A model generated the notes under the pieces. It was not told the origin of the DNA and did not search any database. It saw nothing but the letters and a program-made list of their open reading frames with translations. From the NCBI GenBank assembly GCA_046704545.1, contig JBJKRT010000009.1, positions 42,456 through 106,455 on the forward strand: DNA of 64,000 nt, in the 5' to 3' direction. Below, in pieces: positions 14,136-60,543 of this stretch; position 1 is the first letter of the stretch; every line of letters starts with the position of its first letter. Position numbers and translations under genes: made by a program. Origin of the DNA: Longimicrobiales bacterium (GTDB taxonomy: Bacteria > Gemmatimonadota > Gemmatimonadetes > Longimicrobiales > Gaopeijiaceae).

Positions 14136-14144
14136 GCCTTTCCC

Positions 14145-14262: not shown

Positions 14263-14279
14263 GTATGCGCTGCGCATAC
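14263..14279. promoter_or_regulatory. Perfect 17-bp palindrome GTATGCGC-T-GCGCATAC, candidate upstream activator site
   Basis: Read directly. Its centre (14271) is about 107 bp upstream of the -24 GG, a typical distance for NtrC-family enhancers. It shares the GTAT/ATAC half-site flavour with the 14145 repeat. Confidence 0.45.
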
Positions 14280-14376
14280 GGTTCGCTGGATCCAGGACCG
14301 GAAGAAGCGCCGACTGCCACACTCCAAGACCCTGTGGCTAAACGACTTACGAGAATCTTGCACTTTTCGTCACAAA

Positions 14377-14392
14377 CGGCACGCCCCTTGCC
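14377..14392 (+). promoter_or_regulatory. Sigma-54 (-24/-12) promoter
   Basis: cGGCACGccccTTGCc. GG is at 14378-14379 and GC at 14390-14391, with the canonical spacing of consensus TGGCACG-N4-TTGCW. It lies directly upstream of the pseudo-receiver / REC / cytochrome operon and downstream of an NtrC-type activator gene. Confidence 0.7.
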
Positions 14393-14462
14393 TTTCTCGT
14401 AAGTGCCGGGAGCCAATGAGGGCTCGACCGGCGGGATCGGCCCCCCTGGGCCGGAGGAGGAT

Positions 14463-14873
14463 GTGACGGTGTCGTCGACAGTCTTGCTGGCGGACTCCGA
14501 GCGCGCGGCCTCGTTGGCCGCCAGGCTCGCACCACCGGACCGCAAGGTCGCGTGGTACACGAGTCTCGAGGAGCTCATCCGCGAGCAGCCGTTGTCGTCC
14601 GTCTCCGTGCTCGTCCTTCACTCGGAGCAGCAGCCGAAGGGCGTGATGCTCTCGCTGCTGGGCCGGATGAGCGTCGAGTACCCCGGCATGCAGAAGCTCG
14701 CGGTGATGGAGGGGACACCGCCCCTCCCCATCGCCGAGTATCTGACCGCCTGCGGCGTCGCGCTGTTTCTGACGGAGCCGCAGGAGGAGCACCTGGATCA
14801 GCTGATCTCGGTCTTGAACCGGATGCGCGAGCAGACGGGTTGGATCGTCGGCTCGCGCCGAGAGGAGGCCTGA
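14463..14873 (+). CDS. Receiver-like (pseudo-receiver) domain protein lacking the phospho-acceptor Asp
   Basis: Track ORF 14403..14873. The GTG at 14403 sits at the predicted sigma-54 transcription start, so in-frame GTG 14463 or 14469 is preferred; both follow the RBS GGAGGAGG (14453-14460). CheY-like beta/alpha pattern (VLLADSE..., SVLVLHSE...), but His replaces the acceptor Asp. The start is uncertain by a few codons. Confidence 0.6.
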   Translation: MTVSSTVLLADSERAASLAARLAPPDRKVAWYTSLEELIREQPLSSVSVLVLHSEQQPKGVMLSLLGRMSVEYPGMQKLAVMEGTPPLPIAEYLTACGVALFLTEPQEEHLDQLISVLNRMREQTGWIVGSRREEA

Positions 14874-14877
14874 AGCC

Positions 14878-15510
14878 ATGAACGCCATCAAGAACAGGGT
14901 GATGTTCGTCGACGATGAGGAGGCGGTCCGGGTCAGCTGGAACCGGTTCCTGTCGGAGCAGGGATTCGACGTCAGCACCGCAACGGACGGAGCCGTAGCC
15001 ATCTCGGAGCTGAGGGACCACCCGGTCGACGTGGTCGTGTCCGACCTTCGGATGCCGACGATCGACGGGGTCGAGCTCCTGGCCTGGCTGCGGGAGGAAC
15101 AGCCGGACACCCGGTTCATCATGCTGACCGGGTACGGCACGGAAGAGGTGGAGCGGCGCGTCAGGGATCTCGGTGCGTTCGAGTATCTCAACAAGCCGAT
15201 CAGCCCCGATACGCTCGCGGCCGTGGTGACGGCGGCGACGCATCTCAAGCTCGTCGACCTCGACCCGGTGCAGGAGGAAGAGCCCGAGGTCGCCGAAGCG
15301 GTGGTCGAGGAGGTGGTCGAAGCCGCCCAGCCGGCGAAGACCCGTGAGAAGAGCAAGCTCCGGGAATGGGCCGAGATCGTGGGAGGCCTCGTGGCCGCGC
15401 CGATCATGGGCCTGACCTTCGTGATCTTCCTGCCGGTCATCGGCTTCGTCGGCCTGATGTGGTACGTCGGACGCGCCCTCGTGGACGCCGTTTCAGCCCC
15501 GCGGGGCTGA
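14878..15510 (+). CDS. CheY-like receiver domain protein with acidic linker and C-terminal transmembrane anchor
   Basis: Canonical REC (VMFVDDEE, VVVSDLRMPTIDG, LTGYG, YLNKP). It is followed by an EEEPEVAEAVVEEVVE linker and a hydrophobic tail (IVGGLVAAPIMGLTFVIFLPVIGFVGLMWYV). No output domain. Confidence 0.8.
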   Translation: MNAIKNRVMFVDDEEAVRVSWNRFLSEQGFDVSTATDGAVAISELRDHPVDVVVSDLRMPTIDGVELLAWLREEQPDTRFIMLTGYGTEEVERRVRDLGAFEYLNKPISPDTLAAVVTAATHLKLVDLDPVQEEEPEVAEAVVEEVVEAAQPAKTREKSKLREWAEIVGGLVAAPIMGLTFVIFLPVIGFVGLMWYVGRALVDAVSAPRG

Positions 15511-27972: not shown

Positions 27973-29766
27973 TCAGAAGGTCCCGGGCCCGCGCTGGAAG
28001 CGGCGGCTTTGGTTCCAGCGCGGTGTTCGGATGCCGAAACGAAGCTGGTTCATCTCGAACGTGATCCGGAAGATCGGCCGACCGCCTCGTCCGAGCGGGA
28101 AGGAGATCTCGGGAATCCAGACGTTACGGGAGTTCGCCGGCTCGGCGATGCGGAGCCCGAACCCGGCACTCCCCAACCATCCGGAATTGACACCGAAAGG
28201 GACGTCTCCCGCCCACGTCCGTCCCGCGTCGATGAAGACCGTCGCACCCAACCCCAGGCCGCTCCAATCGGGCCACGGAAAGACGAAGCGATCCTCGGCG
28301 ATCAGGAGGAGGCGTTGTCCGCCGGGCACCGCGTCGTCGGGAAGTGAGCGTACCCCGTCGCGCCCCCCGAGGGTGAGCTGGAACGGAATGTTGGTCTTCC
28401 ATCCACCGCCCGCGGTCGCGGAAAAGAAGAACGTCTGCCACGGAAGCCACCCTCTTCCCCACCCGTACAGCGCCGTCTGCGCCAGGAGATCGTGCCAGCC
28501 TCCGTTGGCCCGACCACCCTCGGCGGACAGCATGAGTCCGGCGAGCGAGCGCCCGACCGGCGCCAGGAGCGTCGTGTAGAGGCGTCCGTACGTGTCATGG
28601 ACGTCGGGCACGTCGCTGGGCACGCCGATGCCCAGCGAGCGTCCGATGCTGACGCCCCCGAAGAAGCCGAGCTTGACGATGTCTCGTTCTTTCAGCGCGT
28701 CGATACCGGTGTAGTCGCGGTAACGGATGCGGCGCGCGCCGACGTGCAGGGCCAATCGGGTCGCGCCACGCGCTCCGGTCTGTGCGGCGAACGAAGGCGG
28801 CAGCGCGGCCTGCCCCGGCTGCGCCCCCCCGAAGTCGTTGTTCTGCACCAGCTCGGGCGAGCCATGGGGCTGCACGATATTGCGCTCCAGGCTCATCCCG
28901 AGGATCCAGGAGCGGGTGGGCTCGCCCAGGCGGATGGCTGCGGCGAGCTCCTCACGGTCGTGGAACATGGGCATGAGGACCTGCGTGAGCGATCCATTCC
29001 CCCCGGTCCCGTAGGAGTAGAACCCGGCGCCGCGGTCGACCAGCTCGGAGGCGGCGAAGCGACTCACGTCACCGACGAACCCGTGGTTGAATTGCTGGAA
29101 GAAGTAGGAGCCCGCCTTGGCCTTGCCCGCGCGGAGCTCCGCGTCGGTCGTACCGAAGAAACGGGGGGTGAAGATCCGGAAGCCGTTGTCCTGCCGCTCC
29201 CGCCAGGCATGATGGTCGACCTGCGCGGTGATGCCGTTCCCCAGGAAGTTTCCCTCCAGCAACTGGACGTGCTCCAGGTTCACGTGTCCCGCATCGTACG
29301 TGGCGTTCACGTCCACGACCGTCGACCAGCTGTCGCGAGTCTGGACGCGGATCGTCTTGACGCCCGGAGCCGTCTCGAACGTATCGATCCGGACCTGGTC
29401 GATGAAGTTGTACCGGTTCAGGATCCGCTGAGACTCCGCCACGAGAAAGGGATTGAAGCAATCGCCCTTGTGAATCAGCAACTCGCGGCGGATGAAGGAG
29501 CGGGTCGTCGTGACGTGAACGAAGTCGGCCGCAGCGAACGCCCACCGGAGGAAGAAGGGGTTGTGGCCGGACCTGGGAAAGACGTTGTGGTTCTCGATCT
29601 CGACATGGCCGACGACGCCGTTCGGGCAGCGCCTGCCTGCATCCGCCTGGGCCGCCAGACCGCGTGCACCCAGAAGCTGAACGACGGCCAGAACGATCCA
29701 TGTGGTCCGAGCCGCCGTGCGACGGCCACCGTGGAGGGCGAGCGGCGGGGATCCCCTCACGAGCAC
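27973..29766 (-). CDS. Omp85/BamA/TamA-family outer-membrane protein (POTRA plus surface-antigen barrel)
   Basis: GTG start and signal peptide (LLGARGLAAQA). POTRA-like segment (VVGHVEIENHNVF...RRELLIHKGDCFNPFLVAESQRILNRYNFIDQVRI). C-terminal barrel ending in Phe. Confidence 0.75.
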   Translation of the reverse strand: MLVRGSPPLALHGGRRTAARTTWIVLAVVQLLGARGLAAQADAGRRCPNGVVGHVEIENHNVFPRSGHNPFFLRWAFAAADFVHVTTTRSFIRRELLIHKGDCFNPFLVAESQRILNRYNFIDQVRIDTFETAPGVKTIRVQTRDSWSTVVDVNATYDAGHVNLEHVQLLEGNFLGNGITAQVDHHAWRERQDNGFRIFTPRFFGTTDAELRAGKAKAGSYFFQQFNHGFVGDVSRFAASELVDRGAGFYSYGTGGNGSLTQVLMPMFHDREELAAAIRLGEPTRSWILGMSLERNIVQPHGSPELVQNNDFGGAQPGQAALPPSFAAQTGARGATRLALHVGARRIRYRDYTGIDALKERDIVKLGFFGGVSIGRSLGIGVPSDVPDVHDTYGRLYTTLLAPVGRSLAGLMLSAEGGRANGGWHDLLAQTALYGWGRGWLPWQTFFFSATAGGGWKTNIPFQLTLGGRDGVRSLPDDAVPGGQRLLLIAEDRFVFPWPDWSGLGLGATVFIDAGRTWAGDVPFGVNSGWLGSAGFGLRIAEPANSRNVWIPEISFPLGRGGRPIFRITFEMNQLRFGIRTPRWNQSRRFQRGPGTF

Positions 29767-35081: not shown

Positions 35082-35321
35082 TTGACCCCCTACGAGTTTC
35101 TATCTCACCTCCTCGTCACCGAGTTCGGCGTGCAGGAAGACAGGATCGTCCCCGGGTCCACCCTCACCTCCCTCGGTCTCGACTCGCTGTCGGCGGCGGA
35201 GCTCGTCCGGGAGATCGAGAGGGAGTTCGGAATCGTCCTCTCCGACGAGCAAGCGAGCTTCGAAACGCTCGGCGATGCGGCGGCCATCATCGACGATCTC
35301 GTCCGAGCCGACCAGGCCTGA
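35082..35321 (+). CDS. Acyl carrier protein
   Basis: C-terminal 79 codons of track ORF 34860..35321. TTG 35082 (or 35076) follows GAGG. Phosphopantetheine site LGLDSLSAAELV, with Ser at about residue 35 as in ACPs. Confidence 0.7.
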   Translation: MTPYEFLSHLLVTEFGVQEDRIVPGSTLTSLGLDSLSAAELVREIEREFGIVLSDEQASFETLGDAAAIIDDLVRADQA

Positions 35322-35329
35322 GACGCGAG

Positions 35330-36562
35330 ATGCCGCGAAGGGTTTTCATCAGCGGGATGGGGCTCGTCTCCCCTCTCGGCAACGAGGTCGAGACGGCGTT
35401 CGAGAAGCTCTACTCGGGCGCGTCGGCGGTCCGCCGGGTCGATTCGGGATCGGGCATGGCCGGAGGCGACGCCATCGTCGCCCCGGCGGAGTTCGAGACC
35501 GACCCCACCATCCCTCGCGTCAAGTCCCGGCTGATGGCGCGTGCCGCGAAGATGGCGGTGCTCGCGACCGGCTCCGCCCTGTCGTCGTCGGGTCTCGAGC
35601 CGGGTGGGCCCTGGGGAAGCGCGGCCGGCATCTACGTGGGCTCGGGCCTGGGCGGATCGGAGGCCCTCGAGGACCACTATCGGGCGTACTTCGCCACGCC
35701 GCCACGCCGTTCGAGGCCCGCGACCACCCCCATGATCATGGCCAGCGGGCCGGCATCCCACATGAGCATGCACTTCGGCCTGACGGGACCGTCGCTCACG
35801 TACTCCGTGGCGTGCGTGTCCTCGGCCGTCGCCATCGGGGAGGCGTTCCGCGCGATCCGCGACGGGTATCTGGAAACCGCGATCGCGGGCGGTGCCGAGG
35901 CCCAGCTGAACGAAGGCACTGTCGCGGCATGGATGGCATTGGGCGCGCTGGCGAAGGAGCATGCCGAAGGCCCTGCCGCATCCAGCAGACCGTTCGACGC
36001 GGAGCGGACCGGTCTCGTGCTCGGGGAGGGCGCCGCGATCCTGGTACTCGAAAGCGAAGAAGCGTTGGCCGCCCGCGGCGGCGAGGCCCTCGCCGAAGTG
36101 GTCGGCTACGGGATGTCGTGCGACGCCCAGAGCCTCACCGAGCCCGACGAGCGCGGACAGGTCCTGGCCATGCGACGGGCCCTGGCCGACGCGAGGGTCG
36201 CACCCGGTGAGATCGGGTACGTGAATGCGCATGCCACGGGCACACCGACCGGGGACAGGGTGGAGTGGACGGCGATCTCGACGGTATTCGGCGAGCGTGC
36301 CGGCCGGGTCCCCGTCAGCTCGTCCAAGGGTGCCCACGGACACCTCGTCGGAGCGACGAGCGCGCTGGAGACGATCTGGACCGTCCTGGCCCTGAGAACG
36401 GGACGTATTCCGCCCACCGCCAACCTCACCCACCCCGATCCCGACTGTCCCCTCGACTGTGTTCCGCAGGTGGGACGAGAGGTCGAAGGGCTCCGGTATG
36501 CGCTGTCGAACTCGTTCGCCTTCGGAGGGACGAACGGAGCGCTGGTCGTGGCGAAGACCTGA
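35330..36562 (+). CDS. Beta-ketoacyl-ACP synthase (KAS I/II type)
   Basis: VFISGMGLVSPLG. Active-site Cys in SVACVSSAVAIG, and His residues in NAHATGTP and GAHGHLVGA. Confidence 0.85.
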   Translation: MPRRVFISGMGLVSPLGNEVETAFEKLYSGASAVRRVDSGSGMAGGDAIVAPAEFETDPTIPRVKSRLMARAAKMAVLATGSALSSSGLEPGGPWGSAAGIYVGSGLGGSEALEDHYRAYFATPPRRSRPATTPMIMASGPASHMSMHFGLTGPSLTYSVACVSSAVAIGEAFRAIRDGYLETAIAGGAEAQLNEGTVAAWMALGALAKEHAEGPAASSRPFDAERTGLVLGEGAAILVLESEEALAARGGEALAEVVGYGMSCDAQSLTEPDERGQVLAMRRALADARVAPGEIGYVNAHATGTPTGDRVEWTAISTVFGERAGRVPVSSSKGAHGHLVGATSALETIWTVLALRTGRIPPTANLTHPDPDCPLDCVPQVGREVEGLRYALSNSFAFGGTNGALVVAKT

Positions 36563-36607
36563 CGACCCGAAGGTCCGGAGCACCTCGGAGCGAAGGCGCC
36601 GTGAACT

Positions 36608-40619: not shown

Positions 40620-42629
40620 TCAGGCTCCCTTCCCTTCCAGGGTCAGCACCTCGAACGGCTCCAGCCGAAAGACGTGCGGCGCACCGGCCTCGAGCCGCAC
40701 GGGTCCACCCGCGCCCCCACCGTCCTTCCACGGGGATGCGAGGCTCCACGACCTTGGCGCCCCCTCGGGAAGCTCGAGCGCACGCTCGACGTCCACCTCC
40801 ATCGATTGCGGCCGGTCGCTCGGATTCCTCAGCACGAGGATGCCCTTGGCCGGTGACCACGACGCCCACCCGTACGGCTCGAGCTCCAGCGGATCGCCGC
40901 CGATCCAGTGCGTGTCGACGAGCGTCGACGCATTTCGCCGAGACCAGCGCGCGGCTTCGGCGAGGTCGTCCCAGTTCTCGTCGCTCAGCAGCGAGGGCGT
41001 GATGTACATCTCCTGGAGCTGAGTCCCGGTTCCGAAGTAGTCACGGATCTCGCTGCGGAAGTCGTGGCCCGGATCGCTGTTCAGCCCGTTGGCGTACTTC
41101 GCGTAGATGAGGCCGTGCAGCATCAGTGAGTTCAGCGGATAGAGCGGCCCCTTCGCGACGATGCCGCGGTGGGTGTCGCCGTCGCGGTACGTGATCCACT
41201 GCTGGCGCTTGGTGCCCACGCCCGCGAACGAGTGGTCGTCCCCGCCACGCCAGATCGAGTCACAGTGCTTGAGCCAGAACGGCGACGGATACGTGCCCGT
41301 CGTGAGGTTCACGTACAGGTCGGGCTCGATGCGGCGCAGGTCCCCGATCAGCGAGATCATCGCGTCGAAGTCGCTGTCGAACCTGCTGCCCGGCACGACG
41401 CTCGAGGCGTTGCCCGTGCCGTCGAACTTGAACTGGTTCACCCCGTACTTCTCGATGAACCGGACGCACGTGTCGTGGAAGAGCTTGTAGTACTTCGGAC
41501 CCGACAGGGCGAACCCGCCGGAGTTCATCTCCAGTCCGTGCGCCTTGCCGTACGCGAGCCGCTCCTGGCGAGGCTTCCCGTAGCCGCCCCACGGCGACAG
41601 CCACACGCCCGGCTCGGCGCCGTAGCGCTCGGCCGCCTTGCGCACGTTGGTGAACCCGTCGGGAAAGCCCGAGTCGAAATGCCAGAGCGTCTTCGGGTCG
41701 TCCCATCCGTCGTCGAAGAGGTACGAGTCGAGCGTCACGTCGCGCTTCTCGTGCAACTCCTGACCGAACGCCCGGATGGCCGCGAGGGCCCCCGCTTCGC
41801 CGTAGCGATTGAAGTAGCCGAGGTCGTACCACGAGTTGTAATGCAGGAACGTCCGGTACGGGTGAGCGCGCTCGCGCTCCACGTACTCCAGGAAGCCCCG
41901 ACGAAGCTGCCCCGCCGGCGTGCTGCCCACCACCGACGACACGGTGAACGTCGTGCCCGGGCGCAACGGGAGGTCTCGTGGAAGCACGGCTCGGGCACGC
42001 GCTCCCTCGAGCGAGGCGTGGGACAGGGGATGCTCGAATCCCAGGTAGACGTCCCCCGACACGATCGGCGAGCCCCGCACCGTCCCGAACACCGCGGCGT
42101 TCGAAAGGTCGACATCGACGAGCACGATGCGCTTCACCGGGACCTGGCTCCTGGTAGGCCGCAGCGTGATCTCCTGCCTCAGGTACTTCGACCCCTGCCG
42201 GCCCACGGCGCTCCACTCCGCGCGTAGTCCCGTCGCCGGATCCTCCAGCTCGACCACGACCCGGGAGCCCGGCACCCGATCCACGAAGCGGGAAGCGTGC
42301 TCGTCGACCGCGAGCTTCTCCGTGCGCGGCCCCCCGAGGATGCGCATCGCCGAAGCGCGCAGCGCGCTCCCGTCCGCCAGCTCGAGCACGAACGCTTCCT
42401 TCGGCGCCGGAATCGAACGGCGGTTCAGCGTGTCGTGCAGCGCCACCGGGCGGAACGAGCCACCCTCGGTCGTCCAGGTGCCCGCGATACCGTCCGTCGT
42501 GAGCGAGACCTCGCCGCCCGAAAGGTGAACACGCGCCAGGCCCGGGAAGACGCCCAGGCCCACGGAAAGCACGGCCGCACGCTCCATGAAGTCACGGCGC
42601 GTGATGGGAGGTCTGTCATGCGAAGTCAT
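40620..42629 (-). CDS. Tat-exported putative glycoside hydrolase (alpha-galactosidase/GH36-like TIM barrel)
   Basis: Track ORF trimmed to ATG 42629. Twin-arginine motif TRRDFMERAA. The YNSWYDLGY...YLFDDGWDD region is reminiscent of clan-D alpha-galactosidases. Family call is tentative. Confidence 0.5.
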   Translation of the reverse strand: MTSHDRPPITRRDFMERAAVLSVGLGVFPGLARVHLSGGEVSLTTDGIAGTWTTEGGSFRPVALHDTLNRRSIPAPKEAFVLELADGSALRASAMRILGGPRTEKLAVDEHASRFVDRVPGSRVVVELEDPATGLRAEWSAVGRQGSKYLRQEITLRPTRSQVPVKRIVLVDVDLSNAAVFGTVRGSPIVSGDVYLGFEHPLSHASLEGARARAVLPRDLPLRPGTTFTVSSVVGSTPAGQLRRGFLEYVERERAHPYRTFLHYNSWYDLGYFNRYGEAGALAAIRAFGQELHEKRDVTLDSYLFDDGWDDPKTLWHFDSGFPDGFTNVRKAAERYGAEPGVWLSPWGGYGKPRQERLAYGKAHGLEMNSGGFALSGPKYYKLFHDTCVRFIEKYGVNQFKFDGTGNASSVVPGSRFDSDFDAMISLIGDLRRIEPDLYVNLTTGTYPSPFWLKHCDSIWRGGDDHSFAGVGTKRQQWITYRDGDTHRGIVAKGPLYPLNSLMLHGLIYAKYANGLNSDPGHDFRSEIRDYFGTGTQLQEMYITPSLLSDENWDDLAEAARWSRRNASTLVDTHWIGGDPLELEPYGWASWSPAKGILVLRNPSDRPQSMEVDVERALELPEGAPRSWSLASPWKDGGGAGGPVRLEAGAPHVFRLEPFEVLTLEGKGA

Positions 42630-42847
42630 GCGGGCCCTCTGGTCTTCTGGATCGGGATCGGCGCGGATCGATTCCACGCCCGGACTGTCCTTGTACCCAC
42701 GCCATCGGGTGATGGTCGCGGAGGAAACGGAGCTCGAAGCCCTCGTGCGAAGAGGAAGAGACCGTGGCGGTCAGAGTACCCTCCGGAGCGAGGACGAGCC
42801 AGTGGCGAGCGGGAGGGGCTCCACGGCCGAAGCTACCCGTGCGCCTC

Positions 42848-48517: not shown

Positions 48518-48616
48518 GAGGCCGGAGCCCGCGGACCGGCGCACCCTGGTTACAGCCGAACGGAACGCCGATATTGGTTCTTTCGCCCCGTCGACCCGAT
48601 CCGAGAGGAACCCTCC

Positions 48617-49204
48617 ATGCGCAGACTCGCAGCGCTCGGCCTCCTCGTGGGAACGCTCTACGCGGCGGCGCCGACACCCGTGACCGCCCAGCAGGCTCAG
48701 GCGCACTTCCTGGCCGTCGGCCAGAAGGCGCCCGACTTTTCGCTGCCGGGCGCGACCCGCTACGGGGTCCTCGCCAATCCGGTGAAGCTGAGCGACTACC
48801 GCGGTGAGACCGTCGTCCTCGCGTTCTTCTACCAGGTGAGGACGCCTGGCTGAACGGTCCAGATGACAGCGTACCGTGATCAGTACGCAAGCCTCTTCCA
48901 CGATGGGCGACACGTCGTCGTCATCGGCATCTCCAACGACTCACCGCAGGCGCTGCACTCCTGGCTGCACGACGCGGACTTCCCGTTCCTGTTCGCGAGC
49001 GAGGCGGGCAACGACGCCGCCACGTATGCGTCCTTCGGTGGTGTGGTTCGGCCGAAGAGCCACCAGATCGGCAGCCGGACCGTCATCGTGATCGACCCCA
49101 AAGGGCGGATCGCCGGCGTGATTCCGAAGTTCAACCAGGTCGATCCCGCCGCCTACAAGAAGCTCGGACAGATGATCGACAAGGTGACGCCGTCGGCGAA
49201 CTGA
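48617..49204 (+). CDS. Exported BCP/AhpC-TSA peroxiredoxin with in-frame TGA at the peroxidatic position (candidate selenocysteine, or a TGC-to-TGA pseudogene)
   Basis: Track ORFs 48617..48853 and 48863..49204 are in the same frame, separated only by TGA 48851-48853. Read-through gives VVLAFFYQVRTPG-U-TVQMTAYRDQY...VVVIGISNDS, which aligns with E. coli Bcp [23 protein letters not shown]...VLGISTD. The conserved Thr and Arg (SRTVIVID) are kept. There is no Cys elsewhere in the protein. It has a signal peptide. Confidence 0.65.
48869..48888 (+). promoter_or_regulatory. Candidate bacterial SECIS hairpin
   Basis: GCGUAC (48869-48874) / GUACGC (48883-48888) forms a 6-bp stem with loop CGUGAUCA. 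The stem starts 15 nt after the UGA, and the loop lies about 22-29 nt after it. The stem is short, so this is only suggestive. Confidence 0.3.
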
Positions 49205-49226
49205 CGGCTCCGAAGGATCCACGAGC

Positions 49227-49256
49227 GGTGGGGGGCACCGTCCGGTGCTCCCCACC
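49227..49256. terminator. Bidirectional hairpin between convergent peroxiredoxin and thioredoxin-like genes
   Basis: GGTGGGGGGCACCG / CGGTGCTCCCCACC gives a 14-position stem with one G-T wobble. Confidence 0.5.
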
Positions 49257-49259
49257 TGC

Positions 49260-49802
49260 TCATGGAGATCCCATCAGCTTCTTGACCTCGGCCGTCAGGT
49301 CCTGCTTCGGACCGACGCCGCTGTAGACCACCTTCCCCTTCGCGTTCAGCATCACCACGACGGACGTGGTGGGGGCATGGTAGGCACGAACCGCCGTGCC
49401 GTTTCCGTCCCACAGGTACGGATAGCCCGGATCGTGCGATGCGAGATGGCGTCGCACGCGCCGACGCGTCTGCGCGACCGCAACGGCGACCGCGACCACG
49501 CTCATCCGGTGACCCCAGCGCTTCTCGATGCGATCCAGCTGAGGCTGCAATGCCTGGCAGTACTCGCACCAGGTGGCCCAGAACTCGATGAGGGCCGGCT
49601 CCCCCTTCTTCACGTAGTGGAGGAGCTGCACCGGCTTGCCTTCGAGGTTCTGGACCTGGACGGCCGGCGCCTCGGTGCCCACCGGAAGGCCCACGACGGC
49701 CTCGTCCGCCTGGGCGCTCGACGCCCCGGGAACGAGCAGGGTCGCGCACAACGTCAGGATCGCCGCAGTCGCGAGGCGGCCGGGGAGGGTCGGAGGATTC
49801 AT
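49260..49802 (-). CDS. TlpA/ResA-like periplasmic thioredoxin-fold protein
   Basis: Track ORF trimmed to ATG 49802, which overlaps the CcdA stop (ATGA). Signal peptide. Active site EFWATWCEYCQ (CxxC). Confidence 0.8.
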   Translation of the reverse strand: MNPPTLPGRLATAAILTLCATLLVPGASSAQADEAVVGLPVGTEAPAVQVQNLEGKPVQLLHYVKKGEPALIEFWATWCEYCQALQPQLDRIEKRWGHRMSVVAVAVAVAQTRRRVRRHLASHDPGYPYLWDGNGTAVRAYHAPTTSVVVMLNAKGKVVYSGVGPKQDLTAEVKKLMGSP

Positions 49803-50530
49803 AGGTTGTATCCCGCCTGTACGAAGTAGTACTCGGCCATGACGAACATGATGAGGGCCGCCAAGCGTTTGGCCCACACCATCCACTTACCCGAACGCGG
49901 AAGCAGGACGAGAGTTCCGGAGAACAGCCCGACGGCGACGAGCAGCGCGCTCATCCCCAGGGAGAAGACGAACAGGTAGACGAAGCCCATGAAGCCCGCC
50001 TTCGTGGCCGCCACCCAGGTCAGCACGACCGCGAACGCGGGGGCTCCGCACGGAGCGGCGACCACGCCCGCGCCGGCCCCCATGAGCAGGACGGCTCCGT
50101 AGGAGCCGCCGTGCTGACGGTCCGCCCACGCCAGCAACCGCCTCGGCACGGGCACCGTGAAGACGTCCAGCATGGTCAGCCCGAAGAGCAGCAGGAGGTT
50201 GCCCACCGCCAAGCGCGCCCATGGACTCGCGCTGACCGTGCCGAACAGCGTACCGGTGAGCCCGGCGGCGAGCCCCAGCGACGCATACACCAGCGCCATC
50301 CCCAGGACGTAGGTCAGCGTGAGTCCGACGGTGCGCAGGCGACCCTGACCCTCGCGACTCGTGCCCGCGATGACCGACACGGTGATCGGAATCATCGGGT
50401 AGACGCACGGTGTGAGGCTGGTGAGCACACCCGCGCCGAAGAGCGTGGCGCACGCCACGAGTGGGCTCGCCGAAAGCGACGAGGCGAGCCCGGAGGACTG
50501 TCCGGCCTGGACCAGCGCGGGCAGGATCAC
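49799..50530 (-). CDS. ccdA: CcdA/DsbD-family transmembrane thiol-disulfide electron transporter
   Basis: GTG start. Six hydrophobic segments. Conserved membrane-embedded Cys in LTPCVYPMIP and APCGAPAF. Confidence 0.85.
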   Translation of the reverse strand: MILPALVQAGQSSGLASSLSASPLVACATLFGAGVLTSLTPCVYPMIPITVSVIAGTSREGQGRLRTVGLTLTYVLGMALVYASLGLAAGLTGTLFGTVSASPWARLAVGNLLLLFGLTMLDVFTVPVPRRLLAWADRQHGGSYGAVLLMGAGAGVVAAPCGAPAFAVVLTWVAATKAGFMGFVYLFVFSLGMSALLVAVGLFSGTLVLLPRSGKWMVWAKRLAALIMFVMAEYYFVQAGYNL

Positions 50531-50543: not shown

Positions 50544-51077
50544 TCACTGCGATTTCGACCAGTTGACGATCGGGAAGATGGGGAACGCCCCTCCGTGATG
50601 GATGATGTTCAGGAGCCCGATCTGCACGCCGCTCAACGACTCGGCGTAGTTGATGATCCCGAACTGCAGCCCACGGTGGTCCATGTTGGCGACGTTCACG
50701 AACCCGACCTGCCCACCGTTCCCATGGTCCACCGAGTTCACGAGACCCCACTGGAGCCCCTCCATGGCGCCCTGTACCAGGTTCACCGCGTTGAGCTGGA
50801 CGCCGGTGAAGTCGCCCTGGGCGAGCCCGGCCAATCCCCACTGCACCCCGAGGAACGACCTCGTGGTATGGCTGACCAATCCGATGTCCAGACCCGTCAC
50901 GGAGCTGCTGCGCCCGTAGAAGAGGCTCAACCGAATGCCCCGGATCGAGTCCGACTCGGGAAAGAGCTGCATCGGGGTGATGAGCGCGATCTGGAACGGA
51001 TGGGTGCTCTGAGCGGCGAGACGTCCCGGGGCGAGTACGGCGGCCCCGAGCAACGCGGCCAGTAGGAGTCTCTTCAT
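50544..51077 (-). CDS. Secreted repeat protein with G-[VL]-Q-x-G-[LIV]-x-N type repeats
   Basis: Signal peptide, then about seven degenerate 13-16-aa repeats (GLDIGLVS, GVQWGLAG, GVQLNAVN, GLQWGLVN, QVGFVNVAN, GLQFGIIN, GVQIGLLN). The tail FPIFPIVNW resembles the Leptospira LA_2272-type surface repeat family as I recall it. Confidence 0.6.
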   Translation of the reverse strand: MKRLLLAALLGAAVLAPGRLAAQSTHPFQIALITPMQLFPESDSIRGIRLSLFYGRSSSVTGLDIGLVSHTTRSFLGVQWGLAGLAQGDFTGVQLNAVNLVQGAMEGLQWGLVNSVDHGNGGQVGFVNVANMDHRGLQFGIINYAESLSGVQIGLLNIIHHGGAFPIFPIVNWSKSQ

Positions 51078-52681: not shown

Positions 52682-53911
52682 TCAGCCGCTCTTCCGATTC
52701 GCCACCAGCTTCTTCAGATCCTGGCCGAGCTGCTTCGACATGTAGCCGGCGAGCCCCGACACCGCCTGGGCCTCGTTGACCTGGATCAGCCCGATGCTGA
52801 ACACGGGAATCGCCTTGGCGTTCTTGGCCTTCGGCACCTTCACCGCCGAGAAGCCCAGCTGCGCACCGGCCTCGAGCTTCTTGAGGATCACCGGGGTGAG
52901 CGGTGTCATGACCCGGATCGGCTTCCCGGTGTCGGCGTCGCCGCTCCAGATGATGTCGGCCTTCCCGAGAGGTCCGAAGTGCAGCAGGTACGTCGTCTCA
53001 CCGGCGATCGGGTGGGGAAGGTCGGCCTCCAGCATGAGCGCCGGGGTCATCACGAGCTTCGGGACGTCGAACGTATAGCCGAGCGAATCCAGAATCGCGT
53101 GCGCCTGGACAATCTGCGTGCTGTCGAGTCCGGACGTGGACCGCAGAACCGGTTGCACCGCGACCGTGACCAGGATGTTGCTACGACGCGCGCTCGTCTC
53201 GGTTCGAGCCCCGCCCAACCCTCCTCCCGGATTGACCTGCACGGGCGTCGGATCCGTCCAGGGAAGGAACTGCTGTATGTCCCAGAGGTCGTTCGCGCTG
53301 TCGACGAACTGGAAGGGGCTGTTGGGCTTCGCGCTGTCGGCCGCCGCCGCCCGACAGATCGTGCTGGAGGTCCCCTGGCAGGCCCTGCGGACGGCACTGC
53401 GCACGAAGACCATCCCCTCGCAGGGGGCCGCCGCCGCCTGCACGGAATCCGCGTGAGCGCTGTCCGCCTGTGCGCGTGCCGCGGCCTGCACGCCGGTCAT
53501 CGCGCGTTGCAGCACGGCCTTGATGGTGTCGCGCCGCTGTTGCCTCACCGCGCGCAGCGAGTCGCTGTTCGTCTCCACGATGCGGCGCGCGAGGGCCTGG
53601 TCGTCGTGGAACCACGTCTTCACCCGGCCCTCGACGGCGTCATTCGAGTCCAGCGAGGGCACGATCGAGGTGTCTTCGAGCGCGACGGCCTCGGCGATGG
53701 AGTCGAGGCGGTTGAAGCGATTCACCTGCGGCTGCATCTCGTGATCCAGCGCGTCGAGGCGAGAGAGCGGCCGGACGCAGCTCCGCGAACGCGCCAGCTC
53801 CGTGGCTGCCATGCCCGCGGGCGCCTTGTCCTGCGCTGCGAGCCCGGCGGCCGTGGCCGCGGACACGAAGAACAGCGCGAGGGTGACGATCGGACGAGCG
53901 AGGGTTCTCAA
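52682..53911 (-). CDS. Hypothetical secreted protein
   Basis: 409-aa ORF with a TTG start after GGAG. It has a signal peptide, four Cys and an Ala/Gln-rich helical N-terminal half. No family recognised. Confidence 0.6.
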   Translation of the reverse strand: MRTLARPIVTLALFFVSAATAAGLAAQDKAPAGMAATELARSRSCVRPLSRLDALDHEMQPQVNRFNRLDSIAEAVALEDTSIVPSLDSNDAVEGRVKTWFHDDQALARRIVETNSDSLRAVRQQRRDTIKAVLQRAMTGVQAAARAQADSAHADSVQAAAAPCEGMVFVRSAVRRACQGTSSTICRAAAADSAKPNSPFQFVDSANDLWDIQQFLPWTDPTPVQVNPGGGLGGARTETSARRSNILVTVAVQPVLRSTSGLDSTQIVQAHAILDSLGYTFDVPKLVMTPALMLEADLPHPIAGETTYLLHFGPLGKADIIWSGDADTGKPIRVMTPLTPVILKKLEAGAQLGFSAVKVPKAKNAKAIPVFSIGLIQVNEAQAVSGLAGYMSKQLGQDLKKLVANRKSG

Positions 53912-55665: not shown

Positions 55666-57102
55666 TCAGTACAGCCCGACCTGTCCCTTCACGGAGGCGA
55701 TGAGCTTGGCCGGGTCGTAGGCGACGCCCTGCTTGAACACCATCCGCACGCGGCGCACGTCGGAGATGTGCGTGGCGGGATCACCGTCGACGACCACCAG
55801 GTCGGCCTGCTTTCCCACCGCAATCGAGCCGACCCGGTCGGCGCGGCCGAGGTACTTCGCTCCGTTCAGCGTGCAGATCCGGATCGCCTCGGTCGGCGTG
55901 AAGCCGGCCTCGACGAGGAGCTCCAGCTCGCGCTGATCCGAGTAGCCCGCGATCACGCCGCCGTAGCCCGTCGGATCCGTTCCCGCGATCAGCAATCCGC
56001 CCGCGCGCGCGAAGCGGAGCTCCATCGCTTCCTCCCTGGGGAACAGGGTGCGGAAGAGGGAGGCGGTATCGCGTTGCGTGCGGGCCCATCGATCCTTGAA
56101 CCGCTGGCGGAGGATCGGATCAAGCACCTCGATGCCGGGGGGAATCGGGCGGCCCGGCGTGAACGTCTCGAAGACCGGAAGCGTGGACGTCACGGCGACA
56201 TGGTGGGCGATGAGCGTGTCGACCAGCGCCTTGAAGGCCGGCCCCTTGGGGTCCACGCGGTCGAGGGCGGCCTGACCTGCGCGTTGGCCGGGGCAGACGT
56301 CGGGCTTCTTGTCTTTCACGAAATCCGTCGACACGAAGAACCCGTGCTCGAGATCGTCGATCCCCAGATCCGCCGCCTCGCGGTACGTCACCGAGCAAAG
56401 GTGGCCGGTGATCTTCAAGCCACGCGCGTGCGCCTCGTCGATGGCGGCTCCGAGCTCCGCACGCGTGATGTCCATGTAGGCCTTGAAGGACGTCGCGCCC
56501 GCGTCGGCCCAGAAGTCCACCATACGCTTGGCGTCGGCGGCGCCCGTGAGGACGTGGAACTGATCCAGCCCCAGGCCGGGACCCTCGAGGTAGGGAGCCG
56601 TGGCGTCGATCCACGGTCCCGGCTTTCTTCCCGCCCGGATATCCGCCGTGATGCCGAAGTCGCCGTAGCCGTTCATGTCACCCGTGGTCCGCATCGTGGT
56701 GACGCCGCCCGCCAGGTACAGACGGGTGAAGCTCTCCGCCACGTTCGCGTAGACACCGCGCGCCGTCGGGTAGAAGAGATGCTCGTGCATCATCACGAGT
56801 CCCGGCATGACCGAGCTGCCGCTGAGGTCCAGCACGCGTGCACCCGACGGGACCTGGACCGAGCCCGACGGCCCGAGGGCCGCGATGTCGCCGTTCCGGA
56901 TGACGAGCGTCTGGTCGGCGCGCGCCGGCGCGCCGGTTCCGTCGATCACCCGGACGTGCGTGAGCGCCACCACCGGCGTGTCGAGCGCAACGTAGCGGAG
57001 GACGTTACGGGAGAGGGTCGGACGCTGGGCGGCGGCGGGGGAAGATCCGAGCGCGAGGAGCAGCGCCGCGAGAAACGGTGGAATCCACGGATGCGTTTTC
57101 AT
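55666..57102 (-). CDS. Secreted amidohydrolase-family metallohydrolase
   Basis: Track ORF trimmed to ATG 57102 (signal peptide MKTHPWIPPFLAALLLALGSSPAAAQ). VIDGTG...IRNGDI...MPGLVMMHEHL matches the amidohydrolase N-terminal metal motif. Confidence 0.8.
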   Translation of the reverse strand: MKTHPWIPPFLAALLLALGSSPAAAQRPTLSRNVLRYVALDTPVVALTHVRVIDGTGAPARADQTLVIRNGDIAALGPSGSVQVPSGARVLDLSGSSVMPGLVMMHEHLFYPTARGVYANVAESFTRLYLAGGVTTMRTTGDMNGYGDFGITADIRAGRKPGPWIDATAPYLEGPGLGLDQFHVLTGAADAKRMVDFWADAGATSFKAYMDITRAELGAAIDEAHARGLKITGHLCSVTYREAADLGIDDLEHGFFVSTDFVKDKKPDVCPGQRAGQAALDRVDPKGPAFKALVDTLIAHHVAVTSTLPVFETFTPGRPIPPGIEVLDPILRQRFKDRWARTQRDTASLFRTLFPREEAMELRFARAGGLLIAGTDPTGYGGVIAGYSDQRELELLVEAGFTPTEAIRICTLNGAKYLGRADRVGSIAVGKQADLVVVDGDPATHISDVRRVRMVFKQGVAYDPAKLIASVKGQVGLY

Positions 57103-57339
57103 GGAGGGAGAGTACGACTCGGGATCGGCCGCGTCCACAGATTTCGGGGTGCGGGCGCTTCCCGACCTCCTTCCGCTCACACGGGAATATGGGCCCCGCA
57201 GGACGGCGACCGCCGGTCACGGATCCGCAGCGGATGCCCGCCCGAGTTCGAGACACCCACGGTATCGCACGAAGACCGGGTCCTTCCTACCTTCTTCTCC
57301 GTCACCCGCTCACCTCCAACTCCACCCAGGTGGATCTAC

Positions 57340-60300
57340 ATGCGACATCTGCCCTCACGAGTCGCCCAAACCGCTGCAGGCACGGGCCCGTTCGCGGTCG
57401 CCCTGGCGCTCCTCACCCTCTGCATCGCCGCCCCCGTTCCGACGGCGGCCCAGCACATCCCTCGCACCGCGTATGCCGGCATGCGCTGGCGCTCGATCGG
57501 CCCCAACCGCTCCGGCAACGTCTACGCGGTCGCCGGTGTCCCGGACAATCCCGCCGTCTACTACCTCGGCCTGCCCGAGGGAGGCGTCTGGAAGAGCTCC
57601 GACGGGGGGACCGTCTGGAACCCGATCTTCGATCAGGTGCACGTGCCCTCGATCGGTTCCGTGGTCGTGGCTCCGGCCGATCCGAACGTCGTATACGTCG
57701 GGACGGGCGACCCGACGGGATGGTCGTTCACGCCCGGCAACGGCGTCTACAAGTCCACCGACGCGGGTAAGACATGGACGCACGTGGGCCTCGACAGCAC
57801 GCGCTACATCCCGACGATGCTGGTGAGCCCGAACGACCCGAACGAGGTGCTGGCCGGAGCCTTCGGCTCCCGGCAGCGGGGCGGCGGCGCGAACACCGCC
57901 ACCGGCGTCTACCGCTCGACCGACGGCGGCAAGACCTGGACGCGAACGCTCGACCTCGACCCGTACACGGGCGTCACGAACCTGAGGCACGACTATCAGG
58001 ACCCGCAGGTCGTGTACGCAAGCGTCCAGCGCCATGCCTTCGGGCTCACGAGCGCCCAGCGCAGGGCGCTCGAGCCGCTCGGGTCCGGCATCTTCAAGTC
58101 GACGGACGGAGGGGCCACCTGGAAGCCCATCGCCGGGCAGGGTCTCCCCCACACCGCGCGCGGGTTCGAGATCGGCGTCGCCTCCGGCACCCAGGGACAG
58201 CGCCTGTACGCGGAAGCGCAGGGCGCGGGACGCGATGCCGGCGGCGTCTACCGCTCCGATGACGGCGGCGCCACCTGGACGCTGGGAACGCACCGGATCG
58301 CGAGCGCCGGCGGTCGCATCTACGTCGATCCGACGAATCCCGACGTGGTCTACCTCATGGGCACGTCGATGTACCGCTCCGTCGACGGCGCGCACAGCTT
58401 CAAGTCGTTCAAGGGCTCACCGGGAGGCGACGACGAGCGCGACCTGTGGATCGACCCGCAGAACGGCAGTCGCATGCTCCTGGGAGCGGATCAGGGGCCA
58501 TCCGTCTCCATGGACGGCGGCAAGACCTGGACGCCCTGGTACAACCTGATCAACGGCCAGTTCTACAACGTCTTCACGGACAACCACTTTCCCTATCGCG
58601 TCTGCGGCGCACAGCAGGACAGCGGAACGGCGTGCGTGCTGAGCCGCAGCGACTGGGGTGAGATCACGCAGAGCGACTGGTCGACGGCGAGCGGCTTCGA
58701 GGCGGGCGTCGTCCTCACCGACCCGCTCCACCCGTACTGGGTGTACACGCAGGGTTGGTACCACACGCTCCGGCGCCTCGACCGCAGGACGGGCCAGGTC
58801 GCCGTCCTGTACTCCCCGACGCCCGAGGATCACTTCCTCTGGTCGCCTCCCATGGCCTTCTCTCCCGAGGATCCCCACACGCTCTATCTGGGCGCCCAGT
58901 GGATCCTGGCCTCCAGCGACAACGCTCGGACGTGGCACCACATCAGCCCGGATCTGACGGTACCGGCGGGCGGCAAGCCCGCGAAGACGGGCAGACGGGG
59001 CGCCCCGTCGCTCCAGTCGATCGCCCCGTCGCCGGCGGCGGCCGGAGAGATCTGGGCCGGCACGACGAACGGGCTCATCCAGCTCACACGCGACGGGGGC
59101 AAGACGTGGACGAACGTGACGCCGAAGGATATGCCGGCGGGCGTCGTCGCCCACATCGACGCGTCGAGCCACGATGCCGGCACGGCCTACGCCGTGGTCC
59201 AGGCGCCTCTGGACAATCACCCCTATATCTTCCGCACCCGCGACTTCGGAGAGAGCTGGGAGAAGATCGTCACGGGCCTGCCCGCCGACGCCGGCGCCCG
59301 CGTGGTGCGTGAAGACCCGGTGGAGCCGAACCTGCTCTATGCAGGAACGGTGAAGGGCGCGTGGGTCTCGTTCGACCAGGGCGACCACTGGCAGTCGCTG
59401 CAGCTCAACCTGCCCACCACGGTCGTCAGCGACATGACTATCCACGGCGCCGATCTCGACATCTCGACCTACGGTCGCGGCCTGTGGATCCTGGACGACG
59501 TGACCCCGCTCCGGCAGGAGACCGAAGCGATCGCGGCACGCCAAGCCTACCTGTTCCGGCCGGACACCACGTACCGCGTGCGGTGGGACAACTACCAGGA
59601 CACGCCGCTGCCTCCCGAGGTGCCGGCCGGCAAGAACCCGCCGGAAGGAGCGATCCTGGACTATTACCTGCCGCAGGCCGCGCACGGACCGGTCACGCTC
59701 TCGATCTACGATCAGGACGGCGGCCTCATCCGGCGCTACACGAGCCACCGGCCACCGCCCGACACGACCATGACGAACGTGCCGACCTACTGGCTGGCCT
59801 CGCCGGTCGTGCTGCCGACGTCCGCCGGAGAGCACAGGATCGCGTGGAACCTCCGCTACACCACTCCGCCGGCGCTGAACTACGGATACTACGGCGGCCT
59901 CCTCGACTACGAGGAGTACACGCTGACCTGGCACGCCATCGAGGGACACACGCCACGCAGAGTCCCGACCGGACCGATCGTGGCGCCGGGTACCTACAAG
60001 GTGGAGCTGACCGTCGACGGTCGAAGCTACACTCGCCAGCTGACGGTCGTGAACGACCCGAGGGACTCGGTCTCCCAGGCCGACATCGAAGATCAGCTCG
60101 CGTTCGAGCGGCGCATGATGGCCGGCATGGCGGCCAGCTACGACGGATTCAACGCCGTCCACCGCCTCAGAGGCGTCCTGGCCCAGGACATGACCAAGCT
60201 CCACGGCGGCTCACTCGCCAAGGCCGCCAAAGCGCTCGATGACAAGGCCTCCGATCTCACCCTGGCGAGCGCCACCGGGTTCGGACCCGCGAACCGCGAT

Positions 60301-60543
60301 CTGGCTCGTCATCTCGAGGACATGGAATTCGGAGACGTGAAGCCGACGCCGAGCGACCTGGCGGCGGCCGAGCTGGACTGCCGACAGATCGACAAGGCTT
60401 CGGTAGCGCTGACGTCCTTGGTATCGACGGACGTTCCCAGCCTCAACGAGAGGCTCGCCCGTGCCCACCTGACGAAGCTGCCTTCGCTCACGGTGCCGGC
60501 CAGGCCGGCGTGCACGGTCAGGAGCACGTCGACGACGAAATGA
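57340..60543 (+). CDS. BNR/Asp-box repeat protein (sortilin/Vps10-like beta-propellers), secreted
   Basis: Real part of track ORF 55768..60543, starting at ATG 57340 with a signal peptide. At least eight Asp-box motifs (SSDGGTVW, STDAGKTW, STDGGKTW, STDGGATW, SDDGGATW, SMDGGKTW, TRDGGKTW, TRDFGESW). Confidence 0.85.
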   Translation: MRHLPSRVAQTAAGTGPFAVALALLTLCIAAPVPTAAQHIPRTAYAGMRWRSIGPNRSGNVYAVAGVPDNPAVYYLGLPEGGVWKSSDGGTVWNPIFDQVHVPSIGSVVVAPADPNVVYVGTGDPTGWSFTPGNGVYKSTDAGKTWTHVGLDSTRYIPTMLVSPNDPNEVLAGAFGSRQRGGGANTATGVYRSTDGGKTWTRTLDLDPYTGVTNLRHDYQDPQVVYASVQRHAFGLTSAQRRALEPLGSGIFKSTDGGATWKPIAGQGLPHTARGFEIGVASGTQGQRLYAEAQGAGRDAGGVYRSDDGGATWTLGTHRIASAGGRIYVDPTNPDVVYLMGTSMYRSVDGAHSFKSFKGSPGGDDERDLWIDPQNGSRMLLGADQGPSVSMDGGKTWTPWYNLINGQFYNVFTDNHFPYRVCGAQQDSGTACVLSRSDWGEITQSDWSTASGFEAGVVLTDPLHPYWVYTQGWYHTLRRLDRRTGQVAVLYSPTPEDHFLWSPPMAFSPEDPHTLYLGAQWILASSDNARTWHHISPDLTVPAGGKPAKTGRRGAPSLQSIAPSPAAAGEIWAGTTNGLIQLTRDGGKTWTNVTPKDMPAGVVAHIDASSHDAGTAYAVVQAPLDNHPYIFRTRDFGESWEKIVTGLPADAGARVVREDPVEPNLLYAGTVKGAWVSFDQGDHWQSLQLNLPTTVVSDMTIHGADLDISTYGRGLWILDDVTPLRQETEAIAARQAYLFRPDTTYRVRWDNYQDTPLPPEVPAGKNPPEGAILDYYLPQAAHGPVTLSIYDQDGGLIRRYTSHRPPPDTTMTNVPTYWLASPVVLPTSAGEHRIAWNLRYTTPPALNYGYYGGLLDYEEYTLTWHAIEGHTPRRVPTGPIVAPGTYKVELTVDGRSYTRQLTVVNDPRDSVSQADIEDQLAFERRMMAGMAASYDGFNAVHRLRGVLAQDMTKLHGGSLAKAAKALDDKASDLTLASATGFGPANRDLARHLEDMEFGDVKPTPSDLAAAELDCRQIDKASVALTSLVSTDVPSLNERLARAHLTKLPSLTVPARPACTVRSTSTTK

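Follow-up and report, generated by a model that had tools for sequence, protein, structure and literature searches.

The window analysed here, a stretch of 64,000 nucleotides (64 kb) from a Longimicrobiales bacterium, contains a peroxiredoxin (Prx) gene in which an in-frame TGA stands where the catalytic cysteine is expected. The question was whether this gene is broken, is read as two products, or is decoded at the TGA as selenocysteine (Sec). A preliminary description of the DNA had proposed a selenoprotein candidate. Conservation of the TGA among relatives, selection on both sides of it and a hairpin frozen behind it supported this proposal, and the gene was concluded, with a probability of about 0.88, to encode a selenocysteine-containing peroxiredoxin (Sec-Prx).

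Translation of the region gave two ORFs in one frame, 48617-48853 (78 aa) and 48863-49204 (113 aa), and the only separator was the TGA at 48851-48853, as had been described. The read-through translation was ...VLAFFYQVRTPG-TGA-TVQMTAYRDQY.... Pfam analysis of the 195-aa read-through product assigned residues 34-166 to AhpC-TSA (E = 3e-23, 82.4 bits against a cutoff of 26). In PDB alignments the TGA fell on the peroxidatic Cys of solved Bcp/PrxQ structures (T-P-G-TGA-T against T-x-x-C-T), and the count of Cys residues in the window protein was 0; the earlier claims on both points were borne out. The features of the locus are listed in Table 1.

Table 1. Features of the predicted Sec-peroxiredoxin locus and its neighbours (positions in the window)
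Feature	Position	Strand	Basis or remark
Shine-Dalgarno-like GAGAGGA	48603..48609	+	7 nt 5' of the ATG, read from the sequence
Sec-peroxiredoxin CDS (predicted), complete	48617..49204	+	195 codons plus stop, TGA 48851-48853 read through
Predicted Sec-type signal peptide (MRRLAALGLLVGTLYAAAPTPVTA|QQ), cleavage approximate	48617..48688	+	Inspection; basic n-region, hydrophobic core, small residues at -3/-1
Tyr72 codon, slot of the universal Pro in PxxxTxxC	48830..48832	+	Comparison of Sec and Cys forms
Catalytic Thr76 codon (TxxU motif)	48842..48844	+	Alignments; T in 89/93 Sec forms
UGA, predicted selenocysteine codon U79, peroxidatic position	48851..48853	+	TGA in relatives, Cys in distant homologues
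Predicted bacterial SECIS, stem GCGUAC/GUACGC, loop CGUGAUCA	48869..48888	+	Frozen synonymous sites in relatives
Active-site Arg154 codon	49076..49078	+	R154 column invariant in homologue alignment
Terminal stop, also TGA	49202..49204	+	Not followed by a SECIS-like hairpin
Strong G+C-rich hairpin at the converging ends of prx and the tlpA-like gene	49223..49261	.	Fold -39.9 kcal/mol, z = -5.45, 0/200 shuffles as stable
TlpA/ResA-like exported thioredoxin, WCEYC motif	49260..49802	-	Pfam Redoxin, AhpC-TSA, Thioredoxin
CcdA-type membrane thiol-disulfide electron transporter, DsbD transmembrane domain only	49799..50530	-	Pfam DsbD_TM E = 7e-43; NCBIfam DsbD-related matches

The catalytic Thr and Arg had been called intact, which was correct. 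The Prx set of Thr, peroxidatic Cys/Sec and Arg was present in full as T76, U79 and R154, but the Pro of the PxxxTxxC motif was absent and Tyr72 stood in its place. At this position (-7) the 93 Sec forms had F in 86 cases and Y in 7, while P was found in 51 of 52 Cys forms. With Tyr72 for the motif Pro, the window protein is a Prx-fold enzyme whose active-site motif deviates from the usual one, and its peroxidase activity is assumed. The AlphaFold model of a relative with 63% identity (P0001) showed the Prx fold with a pLDDT of 89, and the best PDB matches of this model were the Bcp proteins 2ywn, 3hjp and 9a4d_B, with target TM-scores of 0.81-0.82. No Cys was found in the mature region of the Sec forms (90/90), and the Cys forms carried the peroxidatic Cys alone. 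Judged from these residues, the mechanism of the Sec forms is 1-Cys-like, without a resolving Cys.

Comparison with relatives showed that the TGA was conserved without exception. All 26 copies on metagenome and assembly contigs, and all 81 copies from 79 species-representative GTDB genomes, had TGA as the active-site codon; the loci L128 and L178 likewise had TGA, giving 109 of 109 related copies overall. With L128 included, the genome set consisted of 82 copies in 80 species-representative genomes. The records of 76 of these 80 genomes were labelled Gemmatimonadota (Longimicrobiales, Gemmatimonadales and Candidatus Palauibacter); the other four, labelled Gammaproteobacteria (three) and Methanobacteriota (one), were taken to be mis-binned or mislabelled. 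Three genomes carried tandem paralogues (L017, L108 and L121), with TGA in both copies. The closest relative was found in an uncultured Gemmatimonadaceae MAG (87% identity). The 90 distinct coding sequences, all with TGA, had pairwise identities of 57-100%.

The best 120 database homologues contained about 45 fragments of 112-120 aa (65-78% identity) that started at the Met three codons past the TGA, and a second group of full-length proteins of about 190-205 aa (about 50% identity) with Cys. In 60 full-length homologues, the column of the TGA was occupied by Cys in 57, W in 2 and L in 1. The two W forms and the L form belong to the Sec clade, and the one W form with its DNA examined was a TGA translated wrongly under code 4.

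A codon alignment of 23 orthologues gave dN/dS of about 0.12 before the TGA and about 0.21 after it. Synonymous sites were close to saturated (pS about 0.6), and no frameshift or additional stop was present in any orthologue. Both halves of the gene are under purifying selection. Gene decay had been named at the outset as a finding that would weigh against a selenoprotein; the orthologue alignment showed no decay, and distant homologues had Cys at the position of the TGA.

These data bear on the explanation that the gene is a pseudogene, or that a sequencing or assembly error turned TGC into TGA. TGC and TGA are one base change apart, public annotation gives fragments of this gene (for example P0039, a 'redoxin domain-containing protein' of 113 aa), and a near-identical relative with TGC is known (P0001 compared with L097). 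However, the invariant TGA was present in about 100 assemblies made independently, complete long-read chromosomes among them, which excluded the sequencing error considered in the preliminary description. The low dN/dS (0.12-0.21) on both sides, the lack of frameshifts and further stops, and the retention of TGA by both tandem paralogues argued against decay. Pseudogene and sequencing error were thus ruled out, as extremely unlikely readings of a conserved and selected gene.

A second explanation was a genetic code (4 or 25) under which this organism would read TGA as an amino acid, as in the translation by the JGI gene caller of the relative P0044, where TGA was read as Trp. In the window, which has 67.5% G+C, TGA terminated 29 of 40 GC3-supported ORFs, this gene included, and therefore acts as a true stop in this organism. 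When translated under code 4, P0044 overran the real stop of the gene into non-coding sequence, and the single other in-frame TGA with a two-sided coding signal was an ordinary gene junction. An altered code is vanishingly unlikely.

TGC was seen only once inside the Sec clade, in P0001, which is nearly identical to the TGA form L097 and retains the full hairpin. P0001 recalls the "remnant SECIS" cases reported earlier (PMC1794560). The neighbour-joining tree had a Cys root and points to about three Sec/Cys switches, P0001 among them.

Directly behind the TGA, a hairpin with a 6-bp stem and an 8-nt loop was found after a spacer of 15 nt. Its presence and position (48869-48888) had been described correctly; the structure was not unusually stable by itself. 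Its fold energy was about -7 kcal/mol, the element being short, and single-sequence folding in a 76-nt context gave z = 0.17. The significance of the hairpin emerges only by comparison with relatives. Among 108 copies there were three sequence variants, which differed in the loop alone, and the stem was constant, in line with the stem-loop expected past the TGA. The codons of the element in the 90 distinct coding sequences were Ala GCG in 90/90, Tyr TAC in 90/90, Arg CGT in 89/90 and Asp GAT in 87/90. CGT and GAT are minority codons in the rest of the gene; here they are fixed and place G-U in the loop. The mean synonymous codon entropy was 0.23-0.26 bit at the element against 1.13-1.16 bit elsewhere. 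In the 23-sequence set, the element had the lowest entropy of 72 windows, and 0 of 100000 permutations were as low (p < 1e-5).

RNAalifold analysis recovered the stem at 48869-48888 as the sole helix. It gave no covariation support, the stem being constant in all copies; where a stem never varies, covariation is impossible. Rfam scans gave no family match to the hairpin, and a permissive one yielded only noise. Five independent Cys forms with the same peptide had five different sequences in this region; one kept an intact stem, two had a weakened one and the other two had lost it. The peptide A-Y-R-D-Q-Y-A by itself tends to encode the hairpin, so the structure alone is weak evidence and the case rests on the frozen synonymous sites. 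A bacterial SECIS has been described (PMC1088965) as a stem-loop immediately 3' of the UGA whose small apical loop contains G, and the geometry of the 48869-48888 element agrees with this description. A longer lower stem, in which GGCU over the UGA would pair with AGCC, was rejected; it would have required a 17-nt asymmetric internal loop, and its GGG variants were uncompensated.

The position of the frozen nucleotides also bears on the possibility that the locus makes two products, a 78-residue exported peptide and a 113-residue cytoplasmic fragment that restarts at ATG 48863, or that the UGA is read through at a low level by near-cognate tRNAs (Trp/Cys) with no Sec machinery involved. Low-level UGA read-through is common in bacteria, an ATG does lie three codons past the TGA, and both ORFs were predicted by gene callers. 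However, this Met is conserved in the Cys forms too (TVQM/TIQM) and is no dedicated start codon, and the frozen nucleotides lie 3' of ATG 48863, a place where no ribosome-binding site is expected. Both fragments would be without a catalytic residue, and the C-terminal one would have no signal peptide. A Trp inserted at the active site would be inactive, and the 'W' form checked in the database was the code-4 artefact mentioned above. Both versions of this explanation were considered very unlikely.

For the preferred reading, decoding of the UGA as Sec, the following steps are proposed. During translation, SelB carrying Sec-tRNA(Sec) would bind the 48869-48888 hairpin, with the G-U in its apical loop, and Sec would be inserted at UGA 48851-48853, yielding a precursor of 195 residues.

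The genes for this machinery were searched for near the locus. With tblastn (E. coli SelA, SelB and SelD as queries) and ARAGORN, neither the 64-kb window nor the related loci, covered at 0.5 Mb and then at 1.9 Mb, yielded a selA, selB, selD or tRNA-Sec; ARAGORN and Rfam scans over the window likewise gave no tRNA-Sec. The sel genes are simply not linked to the Sec-Prx locus. A scan of in-frame TGAs revealed no other selenoprotein gene in the window; the gene-junction TGA mentioned above, the only other one with coding signal on both sides, lies at 15508. The supplements of the 2016 selenium-utilisation survey and of the Secmarker paper had no Gemmatimonadetes entries. The Challenger Deep supplements had no per-MAG table of sel genes. 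In a published MAG set, selA and selD were each reported in 0.864 of the Gemmatimonadota MAGs (Fig. 3a source data, PMC8938466). MAG B74T1B5, the source of the Sec-Prx locus L141, belongs to that set (PMC8938466).

In three Longimicrobiales loci (L151, L157 and L173), a second and unrelated Sec-type gene, FYRGHW-TGA-PYC, was found within 10 kb of the Sec-Prx gene. Its hairpin was CAGCUC-GUG-GAGCUG, with a 15-nt spacer equal to that of the Sec-Prx gene, and its product is a putative exported Prx-like protein. The frequency of selA and selD in the MAGs and this second gene provide indirect support for Sec decoding in the lineage.

The remaining explanation was that SelB-dependent decoding inserts Cys and not Sec at the UGA, through a Cys-charged tRNA(Sec)-like tRNA, and that the product is an ordinary Cys-peroxiredoxin. 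Such recoding systems have been published, reportedly by Mukai et al. among others, and the present evidence fits Sec and Cys at the UGA alike. Against it stand the presence of selA and selD at the frequency given above, the change of the motif Pro to F/Y in the Sec clade, which is unexpected if the residue stayed Cys, and the fact that a plain TGC would be simpler and yet was found once in the clade (P0001). Insertion of Cys was therefore regarded as unlikely.

The N-terminus of the Sec-Prx precursor resembled a signal peptide (Table 1), with an alternative cleavage site after AQA at residue 29. Inspection by eye showed similar signal-peptide-like N-termini in all full-length orthologues, and in the AlphaFold model of P0001 the N-terminus was unstructured and of low confidence. 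The window peroxiredoxin is probably exported.

Downstream of prx, on the opposite strand, lies a pair of genes for a TlpA-like thioredoxin and a CcdA/DsbD-type protein, which had been noticed as a likely reductant system. The tlpA-like product matched NCBIfam ResA, DsbE and TlpA, all below the cutoff. Its start was set at ATG 49802, which gives a 4-nt overlap with the ccdA stop and agrees with the length of the L001 and L007 orthologues (180-181 aa). The G+C-rich hairpin between prx and the tlpA-like gene had no T tract, and its last two bases overlapped the stop codon of the tlpA-like gene; it is a probable bidirectional terminator. A scan for consensus promoters and terminators gave nothing useful and missed this hairpin.

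The neighbourhood was conserved. TlpA-like and DsbD_TM genes lay within 6 kb of prx (<=6 kb) in 78 of the 96 Sec-Prx loci that could be evaluated, 77 of them with the same convergent layout. The pair also adjoined two Cys-form genes (L175 and L177). The TlpA-like thioredoxin is the probable direct reductant of the Sec-Prx. Since Cys is absent from the mature protein, a second molecule must provide the resolving group.

On this basis, the following pathway is proposed. The signal peptide would direct the precursor to the cell envelope by way of the Sec translocon. In the envelope the U79 selenolate, aided by Thr76 and Arg154, would reduce H2O2 or organic peroxides and become a selenenic acid, which the neighbouring CxxC TlpA/ResA-like thioredoxin would resolve. 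The CcdA/DsbD-type membrane protein would then return the TlpA/ResA-like protein to its reduced state, with electrons from cytoplasmic thioredoxin.

The best precedent for this arrangement is the ScsB -> TlpA -> PprX pathway of Caulobacter crescentus, in which an exported PrxQ-type Prx is reduced by TlpA, and TlpA by a DsbD-family protein (PMC3322552). Genes for predicted counterparts of the three components lie together here. PprX uses Cys with a resolving Cys and has ScsB as its membrane partner, whereas the membrane protein here is a minimal CcdA with the transmembrane domain only. An envelope peroxidase is proposed from the gene linkage and the Caulobacter precedent, and it is rather likely that the TlpA/CcdA pathway of the envelope serves the Sec-Prx.

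Comparison with known selenoproteins showed that the family itself was not new. Peroxiredoxins with Sec in a TxxU motif form an established family, and ocean metagenomes contain many of them (PMC13188914, PMC2398784, PMC1794560). The Sargasso Sea list of 2005 contains a "Peroxiredoxin" entry, AACY01587908, which aligns with the window protein over 156 residues at 67% identity; its sequence (...VLAFFFRVRTRGuTVQMRAYRDQYASLF...) marks it as a direct orthologue. The GOS list of 2008 contains JCVI_READ_1288519 and JCVI_READ_1095898793142 from the same group. The 'Peroxiredoxin (Prx), TxxU' family of the Sargasso/GOS lists and the window protein have PF00578, the TxxU motif and the position of the UGA in common. 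The Sargasso/GOS ORFs begin at an internal Met (MAPDF...), so that no signal peptide is visible in them; the entries have neither taxonomy nor gene neighbourhood and were pooled with unrelated Sec-Prx under one family name. Because direct orthologues are present in the 2005 and 2008 supplements, the finding at the level of the family is not new. The preliminary description had called an exported selenoperoxiredoxin beside its reductant unusual; this was an overestimate, given these orthologues and the known export of a PrxQ-type enzyme fed by TlpA and a DsbD-family protein (PMC3322552).

A Sec-peroxiredoxin has been verified experimentally in Eubacterium acidaminophilum (PMC13188914). This protein, PrxU, likewise has Sec for the peroxidatic Cys in an AhpC/TSA-fold peroxidase (PMC13188914). 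The window protein scored 41.9 bits with the PrxU model (NF040737 peroxi_PrxU) against a cutoff of 270 and is thus no member of PrxU. It differs from PrxU in its predicted signal peptide, in F/Y for the motif Pro and in the lack of a second redox Cys. The PrxU host is an anaerobic Firmicute, whereas the hosts of the window protein and its orthologues are largely aerobic, high-G+C Gemmatimonadota.

The best sequence and structure matches were the Bcp proteins of E. coli and archaea, which have the same Thr, Arg and peroxidatic position. The score with the BCP model NF006960 was 59 bits against a cutoff of 140, and Prx1-type structures scored nearly as well; in the whole NCBIfam scan the window protein reached no cutoff. 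The resolving Cys at +5 of BCP/PrxQ was absent, whereas distant Bcp-type loci had CTxxxC. Compared with Bcp, the window protein lacks the motif Pro, has Sec for Cys and is predicted to be exported. The UxxC Prx-like thiol:disulfide oxidoreductase selenoproteins share with it the thioredoxin fold and a SECIS just past the UGA; their motif is UxxC and not TxxU, they form a different subfamily, and none was found in the window.

Three points appear to be new: the Gemmatimonadota host with the breadth of conservation, the likely export with the linkage to TlpA/CcdA, and F/Y in place of the motif Pro. The selenoproteome papers mention none of these points in their main texts.

A wider evolutionary account was also considered. 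The switch to Sec may have been accompanied by a rebuilding of the active site, in which the Pro was lost and no resolving Cys was kept. The outcome would be an exported 'one-selenol' peroxidase that needs a thioredoxin in trans and is near-universal in several Gemmatimonadota orders, with a SECIS recruited from a hairpin latent in the A-Y-R-D-Q-Y-A codons. This account is tentative, at somewhat less than even odds. If it is true, the recruitment of a SECIS from a latent hairpin would be a concrete example of how a Cys-to-Sec conversion begins.

The locus represents no new kind of system, and its practical value is annotation correction. Public databases carry the gene as two separate "redoxin" fragments or in a wrong translation with Trp, and it is recognised by no curated NCBIfam model; as a result, a predicted envelope antioxidant enzyme is systematically missing from Gemmatimonadota annotations. 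No mention of selenium was found in the Gemmatimonadota genomics papers examined. The relatives provide a large natural set for comparing Sec and Cys forms with a linked active-site change, which bears on what Sec adds to peroxiredoxin chemistry. If the present reading is true, a widespread phylum of soil, marine and sponge-associated bacteria would rely on selenium for an envelope peroxidase.

Alignment of the active-site region showed that the predicted selenocysteine peroxiredoxin (Sec-Prx) and its homologues differed at the proline of PxxxTxxC, a motif universal among peroxiredoxins (codon 48830–48832 in the window). Proline was absent from all 93 homologues with TGA at the active site (Sec forms), being replaced by phenylalanine in 86 and tyrosine in 7, whereas 51 of the 52 homologues with a Cys codon (Cys forms) carried it. 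The only Cys form lacking this proline was a TGC variant nested inside the Sec clade. The catalytic threonine was replaced by glycine in four Sec paralogues, in the related loci L017 (3811), L108 (14308), L121 (10920), and L023.

The TGC variant (protein P0001; L091, 1246–1818) was at a distance of 0.01 from the TGA form of L097 (TGA at 6540), and it kept the full SECIS hairpin and the phenylalanine at position −7. The source of P0001 was a single 2-kb contig; its TGC represents either a very recent change from Sec to Cys or a base-call error. Other database proteins had tryptophan (P0044 and P0081) or leucine (P0031) at the active site, P0081 and P0031 being known as protein sequences. The DNA of P0044 (L178, 548–1120) had TGA at the active site and the standard hairpin; the gene call had been made under genetic code 4 and overran the genuine TGA stop.

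Nucleotide constraint was also found directly 5' of the UGA (48845–48850 in the window, and in the orthologues). The codon at −2 ended in T, as CGT in 55/57 of the 90-CDS set and CCT in 14/14 of the 23-sequence set, both of which are rare codons, and the codon at −1 was GGC in 80/90. Sec insertion is possibly influenced by this sequence context. On either side of the stem, the flanking bases (48868 and 48889 in the window) varied jointly among the orthologues, being mostly A..A, with about 11 G..G and a few A..C. Watson-Crick pairing is impossible for these combinations, and their joint change could be due to common descent or to closure of the stem by a non-canonical pair.

Some genomes had two Sec-Prx paralogues near each other: L017 (2792 and 3811), L108 (10235 and 14308), and L121 (10235 and 10920). 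The second type had a RARGxG-U motif and a longer N-terminus, which, judged from its sequence (GAAACRSD in L017), may be lipoprotein-like. In three Longimicrobiales genomes, a second selenoprotein candidate was located less than 10 kb from Sec-Prx. It was a predicted exported Prx-like protein with the motif FYRGHW-U-PYC, scoring below every NCBIfam cutoff, and its gene had a hairpin (CAGCUC-GUG-GAGCUG) with a 15-nt spacer, equal to that of the Prx SECIS.

Coordinates of the features (window positions unless a locus is named)
Feature	Position	Strand	Remarks
TGA of second selenoprotein candidate	L151 19695; L157 19759; L173 19404
Very stable hairpin	49223–49261		spacer of convergent prx and tlpA-like genes; −39.9 kcal/mol, z = −5.45
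Exported 177-aa protein, VC2662 / LA_2272-repeat family	50544–51077	−	directly upstream of ccdA, same strand
LigD	4102–6846	−	phosphoesterase, ligase, primase-polymerase domains
Ku	9174–10049	+	partner of LigD
721-aa multihaem cytochrome c	15529–17694	+	paired CXXCH, c7/c3-like; fused to cytochrome b561-type membrane domain
1591-aa ORF	55768–60543	+	high GC3
Two long ORFs	57355–58395; 58417–60204	−	overlap 1591-aa ORF; either strand may be coding, 57.3–60.2 kb

The hairpin downstream of prx, which lacks a T tract, is likely a terminator acting in both directions; a consensus terminator scan did not pick it up. The VC2662 / LA_2272-repeat gene was close to Sec-Prx in only 3 related loci; therefore, it is probably outside the proposed reductant module (tlpA-like and ccdA).

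Elsewhere in the window, the 1591-aa ORF was overlapped by an amidohydrolase gene as well as by the two minus-strand ORFs, which had no Pfam match; nor did several further long ORFs (27973–29766, 35105–36583, 40620–42677, and 52682–53911). Genes for a histidine kinase, a sigma-54 activator, and a response regulator (11032–15510) were located upstream of the multihaem cytochrome c fusion. A peptidase S46 gene was located between the LigD and Ku genes, and the LigD and Ku pair is a non-homologous end-joining system.
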